NCBI GenBank assembly: GCA_963921275.4 | Contig: OZ001293.3 | Location: forward strand, 1,504,001-1,568,000 | Source: an uncultured Hormoscilla sp. | Lineage (GTDB): Bacteria; Cyanobacteriota; Cyanobacteriia; Cyanobacteriales; Desertifilaceae | DNA length: 64,000 nucleotides | Direction: 5' to 3' | Shown: in pieces, positions 10,729 to 52,432 of the stretch | Numbering within the stretch: position 1 is the first letter of the stretch | Layout of the letters: each line of letters opens with the position of its first letter | The notes under the pieces: model-generated | Seen by the model: the letters and a program-made list of their open reading frames with translations, nothing else | Told to the model about the DNA's origin: nothing | Databases searched by the model: none | Made by a program: the position numbers and the translations under genes

Positions 10729-11563
<835 letters not shown>

Positions 11564-36071: not shown

Positions 36072-36258
36072 GTGCGAATGGTGAATTGCGAATGGTGATG
36101 CTATTTGTTGGGCGATCGGGTATAGTGGGAGATGAGACGATCGCGACCTACCGATCGCCGGTCTGCGCTTCATGTAGCAGAAAATACATGGCTCCATAAG
36201 TAAGGAAGAGAGAGAAGATGGCTCTGGAAAATTTTCTGGCAAAAATGTAGAGTTTGAC

Positions 36259-38146
36259 GTGCGATTCGTTCTAGCCTAAGGTGGTCAAACACGGAACGCT
36301 AGTCTAGGAAACTAGAAACTCTAGTACTCATGGGGGTTAGATTCCCGTGCGATGAGTTCCAGCCTAACGTAGTCATATACGGAACGCTGGCCTAGGAAAC
36401 TAGGAACTCTGGTAATCATGGGGGTTTAATTCCCCCTCCCCAGGTACAGGGGTAACCGCGTGAGGTGCTGCGAAGTAACATCATCGTGGTGCCAAGCGAG
36501 GACTCAAATGTAGGATAACTGGCAGCCCAAGCCGGTGACTCTGCTAGGAAAGATGTCCATGGCTAGAACAAGCGAACCTATGTAAACCTCGTTAAACCCA
36601 ACCAGCGAAATAAGGCTTAATGCGCTGGAACAAAAGTTAATGCAGTTAGTGTTAATTAGGGAATTGGCTAACATTGTACCCAAATAACTGCCGGGGAAAA
36701 GTAGGGGCCTAAAGGCATCGTGAAATGATACCAGGGAACGAAGTAACCTCAGCGAGAGGAACGAAGTAACCCCCGTGGTGCTGTCCTCATTTGGACAAGT
36801 CAGATGTGCGTCCGCGTAGCGTGCGCGCAGCGCATAGCGCATGCCCATGAGGGGAGAGATGGCCCGAGAAGCTAATGCCTAGGCGGTGTCTGGAGCATGC
36901 CTTGGTGTCTGGAGCACACCGAGTCCTTCAGGACAAGAGTGTGCGGAAGACGCCAAAGTCCTTCAGGACAAGAGCATGCGGAAGACGCCGGTAATGCCTA
37001 TGGATACGCAGACGCGGGTCGGTGATACTAGTAAACTATTGGTACAAGTAGCTCTAAAATGTCATAAGCCCATTTACAGCGTTAGCGAAAGCGAGTTGAG
37101 GATTGAGGAATATTTAACTGGTAAAACGGAGTGTTAAATGGTGATACTAAAGGTTATCCGGCAGATCCACTCACCAACCAGGAAAGGGGCGGACGTGCAA
37201 GTAGTAAGGGACAATGGGAGTAATCCCTAGTAATCCTACCCGTGAAAGGGGCCTAGTACCCAGTAGCCGTGTGCGGTGAAAGTCGCATGCACGGTTCCGA
37301 AAGGGAGGGTTGTCCCGCGAGGGACAGCTCGACCCCGACTTCTCCCCAGGCGCGGGGGTAACACCGGTTGGAGGTGCTGCGGAGTAACATCGCCGTGGTG
37401 CTAAGCGAGGACTTAAATGTAGGATAGCTGATAGCCTAAATCGGCGACGCCGCGCTTGTTAGATGTCCAAGGTCAGAATAAGCGAATTCATGTAAACCTC
37501 GTTACTACGAACCAGCTCTAAGGCTTAATGCGCTGGCCCAAAAGGGTGAAGTAGTTAGTATTGGTTATGTCAACTGACCAATATCGTGCTCAAAGAACTA
37601 CCGGGGTAGAGTGAAGACCTAAAGACAGCATGAAATGATACTAGGGAACGAAGTAACCTCTCATGAGCTGTCCTCATATGGACAAGTTAGATGTAAAGCG
37701 GAAGCTATGAGGGGAGAGATGGCCCAAGAAGCAAAAGCCTGGGGTAATTCCTATGGATATGCTGACGTGGGTCGGTGATAGATAGAATCTTTGGGTGAAA
37801 GTAGCCTTAATGTTTTAGATCAGGAGAAATCCTAGATAATTAATGTTGGACTAAAGACCTGACCGGGTAAAACTTGGAGAACCTAGTAAATTAGGTAAAT
37901 GTTAGTAAAGAGCGGTTAATATGGGTTGGTACTGTTATCCCCCGCGAACCTTCCGGAGTTAGGCATATATGTAGTCTGAGACTAACCATAAGGGGTGAAA
38001 TTGCATGAAGAAAGGGACAAAGGGAGTAATCCTGAGTAATTCTACCTAGGACAAGGGCTATCTACCCAGTAGCCGTGTGCGGTGAAAGTCGCATGCACGG
38101 TTCCGAAAGGGAGGGTTGGGAGGCGACTCCTAGCTCGACCCCGACT
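36259..38146 (+). ncRNA. ORF-less group II intron, outer member of the twintron (36259-36346 + 37341-38146)
   Basis: GTGCGATTCGTT start; DV AGCCGTGTGCGGTGAAAGTCGCATGCACGGTT near 38071; EBS1 GTCAA (37569-37573) pairs with exon TTGAC. Confidence 0.92.
36347..37340 (+). ncRNA. ORF-less group II intron, inner member of the twintron
   Basis: GTGCGATGAGTT start; DV near 37265; EBS1 GGGAAT (36659-36664) pairs with ATTCCC (36341-36346). Confidence 0.92.
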
Positions 38147-38557
38147 CCGGATATTGTGGTAAAAGATGGAGACGATCGTCCCATGATGTTTGTCGCTGTC
38201 GTAGCCTCGCAGGTATATAGATCTGAGAAATTGAAAGTTCATTACCTAGAGAATTATCAACAAGTACCTTTTCTGATGTTTGTCAATCTCACACAAGTGA
38301 GAATATATCAATCGGGAAATTATCATCCAGTCATGATATTAAATCCTGGAGAAATTTTTCCAGTTTACGACCCTGACTATCAAAACCATGAGGTTGTTTT
38401 TCAGGATTATTTAGTTGGATTAATGGATGCTTGGTTAAGTGATTTATCTTATCATTGGAAAAGCGAGCATCCTCCTTTTGAAACGCAAGTTAATGAAATC
38501 GGTTTGATTTCTCTGCTAGAAAATGGTTTTCTTGAGAGAATATTGGAGTGGGATTAA

Positions 38558-39162
38558 ATGTCGATATTTTTGTATATTGAAACAAATGGGATCGTGTCTT
38601 TGGCTCAAAAACGAAATCAAGCAATTGAGTCATTGCTGGAAAACTTACCTAATGATGTTCAGTTAATCTTACCCAGCATTTGCTACATGGAAGCGCTATT
38701 TGCTTTTCAACAAGATAAAAAACGGAGAGATATCTTTAAGCAATCTTTGGTTATTGAGATTAATGAAGCAAGACGAAGCAATTTGAACATTTCGCAATTG
38801 TTGATGAATGACTTAGAACAAAGTCAAGTGAAATATAATTTCCTCTCACAACAGTTAAATGATGAATTCATTGAGGCTTTGAGAATTTTGCAATCTCGTC
38901 TGACTTTGATCCATCCTCAACCGGATACGTTAATCAGAACTTTAGTCGCTCCAAATTTGAATAAATCGACAGAAAAGAGAGATGATTTTATTTTGCGGTG
39001 TATTTTAAGACTACGCTCAAAATTATTCGCACCTTAGGAAAACCTTTTTTAGTGAAAATACGAAACAGTTTGGACAGCAACCTGTTCGAGAGGCTTGTCG
39101 AGAAGTTGGCATTACTTATTTTGGGAATATAGAAAATTTGCAAGGTTGGTTGCGATCGTGAG
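38558..39162 (+). pseudogene. PIN-domain-like protein (copy 1), 3' frameshift
   Basis: LYIETN, PSICYMEA, RDDFIL and (shifted) FFSENTKQF motifs. Confidence 0.7.
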
Positions 39163-39303
39163 TAGCGTCCCTTGCAACCAATGCTTTACAATATCTAGTA
39201 ACCTTGCCTCCCGATCGCCAGTTCGCCAGGGCAAATGTAGCGTAAGATACATTTGCCAGAGGAAATCATGTATATCAAGTAAGAAGAGAGAGGAGATGAA
39301 TCA

Positions 39304-39765
39304 ATGCTGGACAATTTTATCGCCAAAAATATAGATTTTGACCCGGCGATCGTGGTCAAAGATAAAGACGATCGTCCCATGATGTTTGTCGATGTCAGAT
39401 CTTACCGGACATTTAGCTCTGAAGACTTGACAATCCATCACCTGGAAGATTATCAACAGGTGCTTTTTCTGATGTTTGTCAATCTCAAACAAATCAGAAA
39501 ACAAATCAGAATATATCGGTCTGGTAATTATCAGCCAATAACGATCTTAAAAATAGAAGATATTTTGTCATTTTATGCTTCTAATTATCAAGAATACGAA
39601 GTAATTTTTCAGCATTATTTGGTGAGCTTAGTAGATAGTTGGTTAAGTGACATATCTTATGATTGGAAAAGCCAAAATCATCATTTTGAAACGCAGATTA
39701 ATGAAGTCGGTTTAATTTCTCTGCTAGAAAAAGGTTTTGTTGAGAGAATATGGGAGTGGGATTAA
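39304..39765 (+). CDS. Hypothetical protein upstream of the PIN-like gene
   Basis: Intact ORF; paralog of the intron-split gene; its stop directly abuts the next ATG. Confidence 0.75.
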   Translation: MLDNFIAKNIDFDPAIVVKDKDDRPMMFVDVRSYRTFSSEDLTIHHLEDYQQVLFLMFVNLKQIRKQIRIYRSGNYQPITILKIEDILSFYASNYQEYEVIFQHYLVSLVDSWLSDISYDWKSQNHHFETQINEVGLISLLEKGFVERIWEWD

Positions 39766-40369
39766 ATGTCTGTTTTTTTGTATATTGAAACCAATGGAAT
39801 CATGTCTTTGGCTCAAAAGCGAAATCAAGCAATTGAGTCATTGCTATCAAACTTGCGAGCGGATGTTCAGTTAATCTTACCTAGCATTTGCTACATGGAA
39901 GCGCTATTTGCTTTTCAACAAGATAGAAAACGGAGAGATGAATTCGATCACTCTTTAACTATTGAGATTAATGAGCCGAAGCAATTTGAGCATTTCGCAA
40001 TTGGTGATGAATGGCTTAAAACAAATGGAAGAGAGATATGATTTACTCTCACAACAGTTATATACTGAATTAATTGATGCTTTGAGGGTTTTAGAATCTC
40101 GTTTGACTTTGATACATCCTCAACCTGATACCTTGCGCAGAACTTTGGAGCGTGCCAATTTGAAGAAATTGACAGAAAAGAGAGATGATTTTATTTTGCG
40201 CTGTATTTTAGACCAAGCTCAAAATAATTTTTCCGAAAGGAAAGCCTTTTTTAGTGAAAATACGAAACAGTTTGGACAGCAAACTGTTCGAGAGGCTTGT
40301 GGAGAAGTTGGGATTACTTATTTTGGCAATATAGAAAACTTACAAAGTTGGTTGCAATCTCTTCAGTGA
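39766..40369 (+). pseudogene. PIN-domain-like protein (copy 2), frameshifted near 39975
   Basis: Two overlapping ORFs that together match copy 1. Confidence 0.72.
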
Positions 40370-51489: not shown

Positions 51490-52432
51490 GTGCGAATCGT
51501 TTTGGCGTAAGTCTGAAATATGGCGATCGCCGGGCTGGTTAATACCAGCAACTCTGGTCATCATGGGGGTTCAATTCCCCTTCCCCCAGGTACGGGAGTG
51601 ACCGCGTGAGGTGCTGCGGAGTAACATTACCGTGGTGCCTCCCGAGGACAAATGTAGGATAAGGTCTCAGCCCAGAGACCGACGCCGCATGGCTGCGCCA
51701 CGCTGCGCGATCGGAAAGAGGCTCATGGTTAGAGCAAGCGAATCCCTGTAAGCATCGTCATCTTAAACAAGCGAAAAGAGGCTGACACGCTTGGTGCAAA
51801 ATGCGCACGCAGTCCGCGTATCAGTGGTTGCACGTCACTGATATCGTACCCGAAATGACTGCCGGTGTATAGGGGAGACCTAAAAGCCTCGTGAAATGAT
51901 ACCAGGGAACGTTCCGGACAAGAGCGGTGCTGTCCAGATGGACAAGTCAGATGTGCGTCCGCGTAGCGTGCGCGCAGCGCCTAGCGCATGCCCGCGTGGG
52001 GAGGGAGGTCCTAAGAAGCTAATGCCCGGGGTAATGCCTGTGGATATGCAGACGTAGGACGGATATGGTAAAAAGCTCTAGGAGATAGTAGCCCTCTAAA
52101 CGTGCTTAACCAGTGGCAACACTAGGTAGTAATGATGGACTGAAATCCTAACCGGGTAAAAAATTTAGAGGCCCCATACGGGCACCTGTTAGTAAAGAAC
52201 GGTCATAGTGGTTTTCTAGTTCTCCCCCGTAAACCTTCCGGAGTTAGGTACTCAACTAGTTCATGACTGACCATAAAGGGGCTATATTTCATAGGGCAAG
52301 GGACAACGGGAGTAATCCCTAGTAATCCTACCCGTGACAAGGGTTTACCAACCAGTAGCCGTGTGCGGTGAAAGTCGCTCTTCAGGTTCCGAATGGGAGG
52401 ATTGTCCCGCGAGGGACAGCTCGACCCCGACC
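51490..52432 (+). ncRNA. ORF-less group II intron (intron 4), domain V partly mutated
   Basis: GTGCGAATCGTT start; EBS1 TGCACG (51829-51834) vs exon CGGGCA; DV 3' arm GCTCTTCAGG; ends CTCGACCCCGAC(C). Confidence 0.9.

Follow-up and report, generated by a model that had tools for sequence, protein, structure and literature searches.

Group II introns are known to insert into one another, and several described systems resemble the nested pair of introns reported here, which lies in a 64,000-nt stretch of DNA (the window) from an uncultured cyanobacterium, Hormoscilla sp. (GenBank assembly GCA_963921275.4, contig OZ001293.3, positions 1,504,001–1,568,000, forward strand). There, an inner 994-nt group II intron without an open reading frame (ORF) (36347–37340) is nested 88 nt into an outer, 894-nt ORF-less sibling (36259–38146). 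In Thermosynechococcus elongatus, ORF-less F3 (TeI3) introns sit between the first two ATGs of the F1 (TeI4) ORF, in domain IV, and the authors considered insertion at a conserved site of another mobile intron to be a mechanism of proliferation (Mohr, Ghanem and Lambowitz 2010, PMC2882425). As in Hormoscilla, the organism is a cyanobacterium in which an ORF-less intron, derived there from an ORF-containing relative, occupies one conserved site in related mobile introns, and divergent outer introns contain identical inner copies (PMC2882425). The inner intron of T. elongatus is mobilized by a protein acting in trans, as is proposed for Hormoscilla, where candidate proteins are encoded. The two systems differ in that the T. 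elongatus insertions lie in the non-catalytic domain IV, whereas those of Hormoscilla lie in a domain-I hairpin of mostly ORF-less hosts, with about 370 potential sites and a target choice that can be related to contacts at positions −14 and +1.

In the archaeon Methanosarcina acetivorans, work has shown repeated site-specific homing into other group II introns, which provide a perpetual homing site (PMC4424553, PMC2882425). Up to five introns are nested there, as opposed to two levels and a domain-I hairpin target in Hormoscilla. A 2003 article by Dai and Zimmerly reportedly, going by its title, concerns homing of M. acetivorans introns into the ORFs of related introns. Another relevant system is the Tr.e.I7/Tr.e.I8 twintron of Trichodesmium erythraeum, where published splice coordinates put the inner intron 154 nt into its host, in domain I, and where experiments demonstrated sequential splicing (Pfreundt and Hess 2015, PMC4649490). 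It shares with the present pair the insertion into domain I, the protein-coding host gene and, in its case, a filamentous cyanobacterium as the organism; however, the T. erythraeum case is confined to one locus, its two introns each contain an ORF and come from different subgroups (B1 in B2), and neither a family-wide target motif nor a multi-copy hunting lineage is described (PMC4649490). Finally, the lycophyte mitochondrial “zombie” twintron cox1i1149g2 also has a family member inside its own family but, unlike the Hormoscilla pair, is organellar, with a dead inner intron in domain IV, an outer intron that splices regardless and no multi-copy pattern at a specific site (Zumkeller, Gerke and Knoop 2020, PMC7049729). 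Bacterial and archaeal introns described as homing into other introns are directed at an intron ORF or domain IV, and a literature search in which most subscription journals fell outside the scope turned up no account of an ORF-less lineage with a domain-I hairpin of its own family as its target.

The Hormoscilla locus appears to be a new variant of the intron-into-intron homing known from Thermosynechococcus and Methanosarcina rather than a new kind of element. With a probability of roughly 85%, it is a real twintron, in which a young ORF-less lineage of group IIB type, called the hunter below, retrohomed into an older, single-copy ORF-less sibling. The features on which this reading rests, with exon-binding sites (EBS), intron-binding sites (IBS) and window coordinates, are as follows.

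36259–38146, plus strand: outer intron, whole; 5′ end GTGCGATTCG, 3′ end CGACCCCGACT
36259–36346, plus strand: 5′ segment of the outer intron, 88 nt, from GTGCGATTCG to ATTCCC, the 5′ part of the first small domain-I hairpin
36329–36346, plus strand: target motif CATGGGGGTTAGATTCCC in the outer intron, with IBS2a G at 36333, IBS2 GGGTT at 36334–36338 and IBS1 ATTCCC at 36341–36346
36347–37340, plus strand: inner intron (hunter lineage), 994 nt; 5′ end GTGCGATGAG, 3′ end CGACCCCGACT as in the outer intron
36417–36434, plus strand: hairpin motif of the inner intron itself, CATGGGGGTTTAATTCCC, followed by C; −14 is G and +1 is C, a predicted poor target
36443–36448, plus strand: putative alpha loop GGTACA in the next hairpin of the inner intron, pairing with alpha′ TGTACC at 36675–36680
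36593–36599, plus strand: inner EBS2a U (36593) and EBS2 AACCC (36595–36599)
36659–36664, plus strand: inner EBS1 GGGAAT, complementary to the outer ATTCCC at 36341–36346
36699, plus strand: inner EBS3 candidate A, pairing with the T at 37341, the first base past the insertion
37262–37339, plus strand: inner domains V–VI (RF00029, 47.9 bits)
37341–38146, plus strand: 3′ segment of the outer intron, 806 nt; 5′ end TCTCCCCAGG, completing the split hairpin
37505–37509, 37569–37573 and 37609, plus strand: outer EBS2 CTACG, EBS1 GTCAA and EBS3 G, read by eye
38068–38145, plus strand: outer domains V–VI (RF00029, 48.0 bits)

The boundaries of both introns agree across several kinds of evidence. End profiles of the family, built from the four group II introns of the window, put ends at 36259, 36347, 37340 and 38146, and the sequence GTGCG occurs at both 36259 and 36347, where the conserved group II 5′ end is GUGYG. 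Both domain V–VI matches exceed the gathering score of the Rfam model (40), and a third RF00029 match lies on the minus strand at 10730–10807. The 3′ boundary is one base past the Rfam match, and the reading frame of the gene that hosts the fourth window intron is open only under the same rule. No long ORF was found in the inner or the outer intron. The 5′ sequence of the outer intron, GTGCGATTC, is the form listed for B2 (PMC4649490), that of the inner intron is GTGCGATGA and the IIB consensus is GUGCGAUUC. A subgroup label of IIB (IIB2-like, CL-type) is provisional; the covariation of EBS3 and EBS2a described below is present. The central region of the inner intron (36770–36990), presumably domains II–IV, contains short duplications in tandem: a stretch of about 36 nt (GTCCTTCAGGACAAGAG...GGAAGACGCC) twice, as well as GGTGTCTGGAGCA twice and GGAACGAAGTAACC twice.

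When 36259–38146 is removed, the remaining DNA is colinear with a tandem paralogue at 39304, with zero indels, and an intron-less junction that joins TTTGAC directly to CCGG is found at the syntenic place, 3′ of the same ABC-transporter gene, in three congeneric genomes. By comparison of sequences, these intron-less congeneric genes are the empty site for the outer intron. When only the inner intron is removed, the resulting 894-nt outer intron aligns end to end with uninterrupted relatives (89% over 892 nt), and the split hairpin is whole again and family-typical. The preliminary description of this DNA, made from its letters alone, had placed a complete intron 88 nt inside another, and the exact ends, the two RF00029 matches and the empty-site junctions bear this out. 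As far as the sequence can tell, the arrangement is a twintron: a complete intron lies wholly within another, and its removal yields a normal outer intron.

The site of the insertion is a motif shared by the family. An 18-nt form of it, CATGGGGGTTNNATTCCC, occurs four times in the window without mismatches, once in each intron (11473–11490 on the minus strand, 36329–36346, 36417–36434 and 51562–51579), just as the preliminary description had noted; the chance expectation is 0.06, and 0 of 100 shuffles reach four occurrences. In a consensus fold from 53 sequences (one for each cluster at 95% identity plus the restored outer intron), the motif forms a hairpin of GGGGG, a 7-nt loop UUNNAUU and CCCCC, and the insertion point falls within its 3′ strand. 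Because the stem hardly varies, this hairpin is predicted from complementarity, without covariation. The loop of the next hairpin can pair just 3′ of EBS1, with at least five of six pairs in 52 of 52 cluster representatives as opposed to 0–2 in slid controls, and several pair types occur at each position across the representatives. This pairing is read as a putative alpha–alpha′ interaction, which would identify the target as the small hairpin that immediately precedes the alpha hairpin. The names alpha–alpha′ and those of the hairpins are ones that we take to apply to these domain-I elements. With its 5-bp G:C stem and 7-nt loop (TTNNATT), the target hairpin resembles a tRNA T-arm; the loop reads TTCAATT in the fourth intron and in congeners.

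Contacts between the inner intron and its target were examined in an alignment of domain I from 330 simple introns of the family. The EBS1 columns form at least five of six pairs with the intron's own flank in 291 of 329 introns, compared with 24% (maximum 29%) in shuffles. EBS1 GGGAAU occupies positions 313–318 of the inner intron and EBS2 AACCC positions 249–253, and the pairing that the preliminary description had proposed for them, with ATTCCC and with GGGTT (36334–36338) of the outer intron, stands at these coordinates. Another contact known from IIB introns is the pairing of EBS2a, two positions 5′ of EBS2, with the base at −14 (Monachello et al. 2021, PMC8643678); in EcI5, the EBS2a–IBS2a contact is needed for mobility and DNA integration but not for splicing or recognition of the RNA exon (PMC8643678). 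In the alignment, position 247 covaries with −14 (U with A in 153/284, C with G in 13/20, A with T in 19/22 and G with C in 3/4). A scan of all domain-I columns against +1 singled out position 353 (U with A in 227/284, G with C in 10/12 and A with T in 28/34), which is taken as the probable EBS3. The hunter carries U247 and A353, and its ideal site would thus have A at −14 and T at +1, two positions that are partners in the second base pair of the target hairpin. At the window site, −14 is the only mismatch among the contacts of the inner intron. Those of the outer intron are intact, with 5 bp for EBS1, 5 bp for EBS2, a U:A pair for EBS2a and a G:C pair for EBS3; its exon contacts (IBS1 TTGAC, IBS2 TGTAG and A at −14) all lie in exon 1.

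The distribution of further copies carries the argument beyond a single locus. The exact 5′ 30-mer of the inner intron has 14 copies in the genome, all directly after the motif or a close look-alike. Thirteen of the 14 lie in the same domain-I hairpin of other introns, every one of them in the sense orientation of its host, and at least seven distinct host upstream sequences are represented, including a host at chromosome position 6622023 that carries a reverse transcriptase (RT) ORF. The host's GTGCG is found 85–93 nt upstream in 11 of the 14 copies, and at two others (2265897 and 5243199) the 5′ parts of the hosts are disrupted yet recognizable. The one ectopic hunter, at 5978581, is in non-intron DNA after the look-alike ATGAGGGCAAGATTCCT, with A at −14. 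Four uninterrupted 994-nt hunters, the inner intron among them, are 99.3–100% identical, in contrast to the 89% that separates the outer intron from its nearest relatives. In two further full-length hunters, an antisense intron and an insertion sequence (IS)-like element, respectively, break the sequence, and three copies are truncated or disrupted. On this distribution of near-identical copies at one conserved site of diverged host introns, the hunter is best described as an intron-targeting lineage. The preliminary description had held that the inner intron homes into the ribozyme scaffold of its siblings rather than into an ORF, and that copies at unrelated sites would speak against this; both points are answered by the 13 of 14 copies after the same hairpin motif, with the only off-intron copy at a look-alike. 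A second lineage, with GAGAAT as its EBS1, occupies the same hairpin site at 5258757.

The same description had envisaged iterative nesting, which the hunter lineage does not exhibit: none of its 14 copies lies within another hunter. Two candidates for such self-nesting were rejected. The hunter at 5193398 is split within its own motif, but by an antisense group II intron (chromosome 5193482–5194426) with a short duplicated stretch at the junction, a nest that splicing of a sense transcript could not resolve. The hunter at 5893755 is split in its alpha hairpin by an IS-like element with inverted ends. Elements that are IS-like or resemble miniature inverted-repeat transposable elements (MITEs) interrupt intron copies at 5893660–5891680 and in the vicinity of 4584050 and 5258930; in the alpha hairpin, one such element with inverted ends is accompanied by a 10-bp duplication of CCCCAGGTAC, and another, with ends like AAGTTGCGACCTAT, once lies exactly within an EBS1 loop.

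Occupancy of the hairpin sites follows the two contacts at −14 and +1. Sites with perfect IBS1 and IBS2 were classed by the bases at these two positions (in that order), with +1 undeterminable in three hunter copies.

A/T class: six occupied (five by the hunter, one by the second lineage), one empty
A/C class: one occupied, two empty
G/T class: four occupied (one with IBS1 GTTCCC), 131 empty
G/C class: none occupied, 200 empty

An A at −14 is present at 8 of 13 occupied but 3 of 360 empty sites (Fisher p = 2e-11), and a T at +1 at 9 of 10 occupied but 139 of 360 empty sites (p = 0.0015), p-values that overstate the case because the sites are related and the statistics treat them as independent. 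The hunter's own hairpin belongs to the G/C class, which fits the absence of hunters within hunters, and further nesting of the lineage is predicted to be disfavored. This graded occupancy (A/T well above G/T, and G/T above G/C) provides support from within one genome for a role of EBS2a–IBS2a and EBS3 in natural retrohoming.

A mechanism can be proposed in which hunter lariat RNA, together with an RT/maturase/endonuclease supplied in trans, would make up a retrohoming ribonucleoprotein (RNP). The RNP would recognize DNA encoding the first small domain-I hairpin, GGGGG-UUNNAUU-CCCCC, directly 5′ of the alpha hairpin, through four contacts: EBS1 GGGAAU with ATTCCC at −6 to −1, EBS2 AACCC with GGGTT at −13 to −9, the EBS2a U with −14 and the EBS3 A with +1. 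The hunter would then reverse-splice between the third and fourth pair of the hairpin's 3′ strand. Since −14 and +1 form one base pair of the hairpin, A:U variants would be near-saturated, G·U variants would be rare targets and G:C variants, the hunter's own included, would be spared. Retrohoming of the RNP into DNA, the identity of the mobilizing protein and splicing of the inner intron with the outer half-hairpin as its 5′ exon are all presumed in this scheme. As the inner intron interrupts a helix where domain I begins, 5′ of alpha and of all EBS elements, folding of the outer intron probably needs prior removal of the inner one, and inner splicing would have to precede outer splicing.

Several observations weigh against this reading or limit its reach. 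Five of the hunter copies are chimeric, being hunter-like only in their first 402–410 nt (both EBS loops included) and having another 3′ part beyond, so that recombination also shapes these loci. The loci at 4584358 and 4581308 are in tandem, 141 nt apart and in the same host type, while those at 1387525 and 1428685 have an identical upstream 40 nt; with shared host types and possible duplications, the 13 insertions do not amount to 13 independent events, just as the occupied and empty sites are not independent of one another. The window twintron itself has G at −14 and so belongs to the suboptimal G/T class rather than the preferred one. Furthermore, the host gene has lost 1 nt from exon 1 by comparison with its paralogue and the congeneric genes, and with the host ORF frame-shifted in this way, nothing at the locus shows selection for splicing. 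Searches of relatives and metagenome contigs found no close hunter copy outside the source genome, and the pattern thus has no cross-species replication. In a comparison of hunter DNA with 40 relatives, the family occurred in congeners at no more than 80% identity, and the two nearest copies examined had other EBS loops and flanks; a hunter-specific junction pattern had no matches in metagenome contigs. A search of genome contigs with the pattern GGGTTNNATTCCCGTGCGA returned 23 loci, none of them cyanobacterial, which were judged chance matches and not twintrons: five overlap tRNA genes, the other 18 are without intron features by eye, and about 70 matches to its 17 fixed bases are expected by chance in 2 × 596 Gb. 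With up to two mismatches in 20 relatives, the three candidates examined for this pattern (G002, G004 and G005) were coding sequence.

The frameshift bears on one alternative, in which the inner intron has ceased to splice, the outer intron either is removed together with it or does not splice, and the locus is a decaying pseudogene without ordered splicing. The host gene and its neighbors are arranged as follows.

36218–36258, plus strand: exon 1 of the host gene, ending GAGTTTGAC; its ATG at 36218 lies in a different frame from exon 2
38147–38557, plus strand: exon 2 of the host gene; the family is unnamed and lacks a Pfam match
38558–39037: PIN_12 gene directly after exon 2
39304–40369: tandem pair of intron-less paralogous genes

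It is the 1-nt deletion that puts the ATG at 36218 out of frame, and one short-read contig from a public DNA run matches the assembly across 36100–36313 with no differences; the host gene may be a pseudogene, to go by its frame. In addition, an intact tandem paralogue is present at 39304, other hunter loci are clearly dead through the antisense intron and the IS-like insertions, and a plant mitochondrial outer intron splices without splicing of the inner one, albeit around an insertion in domain IV (PMC7049729). On the other hand, both introns of the window pair are complete, with domains V–VI above threshold and alpha–alpha′ intact, the outer EBS–IBS contacts are all in place and the inner ones are mismatched only at −14, and the inner copy is 100% or near-identical to others and hence young. 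A nest of this dead kind is doubtful, although it deserves to be taken seriously.

Under a second alternative, the inner intron would not have homed repeatedly to its site, and the nested arrangements would have spread by copying of composites. The two pairs of hunter loci with a shared host type, one of them tandem, are what such copying would leave, and it is plausible in this genome, where a 1742-nt twintron of another, 871-nt intron family exists in five copies with four flank pairs. The diversity of the hosts, the ORF-containing one among them, is nevertheless difficult to reconcile with composite copying, as are the hunter at a non-intron look-alike site and an occupancy that tracks the predicted EBS2a and EBS3 pairing; the near-identity of the hunters beside a host at 89% to its nearest relatives likewise points away from co-divergence of host and hunter. 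Composite copying in place of homing is improbable on these grounds.

A third possibility is that the hunter reverse-spliced into the RNA of host introns and reached the genome through reverse transcription and recombination. The target is part of an abundant RNA, and the uniform sense orientation of the 13 intron-hosted insertions would be expected, though a DNA route predicts the same. The dependence on −14, however, matches EBS2a–IBS2a, which in EcI5 is a contact for DNA integration only (PMC8643678), and the ectopic copy, also with A at −14, is in non-intron DNA; this route is slightly less probable still than composite copying. An assembly artefact among more than 400 near-identical repeats is very improbable, for although short-read contigs from four public DNA runs break at repeat borders and none spans the stretch (their joints may stem from other family copies and so neither support nor oppose nesting), the same junction type recurs at 13 loci in different hosts, the insertion is exact to the base with a family-typical hairpin on its removal, and a single 6.88-Mb contig with hundreds of resolved repeats suggests a long-read assembly.

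The retrohoming reading invites a further, tentative suggestion, namely that the hunter is a hyperparasite in an arms race with its own family and that the 200 G:C sites, the hunter's among them, are resistant alleles. If that were true, host introns would become susceptible or resistant through compensatory change at one structural base pair, and with every invasion, expression of the host gene would come to rely on two splicing events in a fixed order. Independently of that idea, about 370 copies in one genome share the targeted structural hairpin in catalytic domain I, which amounts to a natural experiment on target choice by EBS among hundreds of nearly identical sites, and the hunter lineage would give a compact bacterial system in which to test ordered splicing.

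The setting for these events is a genome with an exceptional load of introns. Across the 6.88-Mb chromosome (47.4% G+C), 415 5′ ends and 448 3′ ends of the family were located; a crude stack pairing joined them into 377 end pairs covering about 343 kb, or 5.0% of the chromosome, values that serve as rough totals only because the pairing includes several mis-pairings (for example, a 5-nt “intron”). Simple elements of 700–1010 nt number 335, of which 330 start with GTGCG; clustering at 95% identity yields 52 clusters, and the two largest contain 139 and 71 members. The hairpin motif has 373 matches genome-wide with up to two mismatches. The maturase domain GIIM has 75 matches in the genome, and two sampled ORFs of 590 and 592 aa contain RVT_N, RVT_1, GIIM and HNH, so that proteins for splicing and mobility would be available in trans. 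The highest published per-genome count found was 101 introns in one survey (PMC8919778), while “at least 150” are stated for Arthrospira (PMC4649490). The load here is far above the published per-genome maximum found. A literature search, in which most subscription journals were again out of scope, found no publication on introns in Hormoscilla.

The largest family in this set, with an 871-nt intron in 139 clustered copies of mostly 99% identity or more, has been invaded by itself at position 768. The five resulting twintrons (for example, 1325884–1327625) are about two mismatches apart and have four distinct flank pairs, which could reflect either spread of the composite or repeated self-insertion.

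Around the window twintron, 36218–40369 comprises two tandem modules, each with a member of the unnamed 153-aa family and a PIN_12 protein; the first bears the twintron and the exon-1 frameshift, and the PIN gene of the second is seemingly split (39766–40041 and 39962–40369). Congeners have a single intron-less module at the syntenic place. The neighboring ABC transporter has 93–94% protein identity to metagenome-assembled genomes titled Hormoscilla sp.

The fourth intron of the window, ORF-less and on the plus strand at 51490–52432, lies within a haemagglutinin-repeat-like gene, and without the intron the frame of this gene is open again. Rfam gives no domain V match for the intron even at E = 1; the 3′ strand of its domain V is CTCTTCAGG where its siblings have CATGCACGG, and a similar variant, CTCTTTAGG, occurs in several other intron families of the genome, so this domain V may be derived rather than decayed. 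The window also contains a group I intron on the minus strand at 2073–2291 (RF00028, 66.9 bits, full model). Elsewhere in the assembly, a contig of 31,420 bp (C3) has 17.6% G+C as opposed to 47.4% for the chromosome and may be foreign or an unusual replicon.

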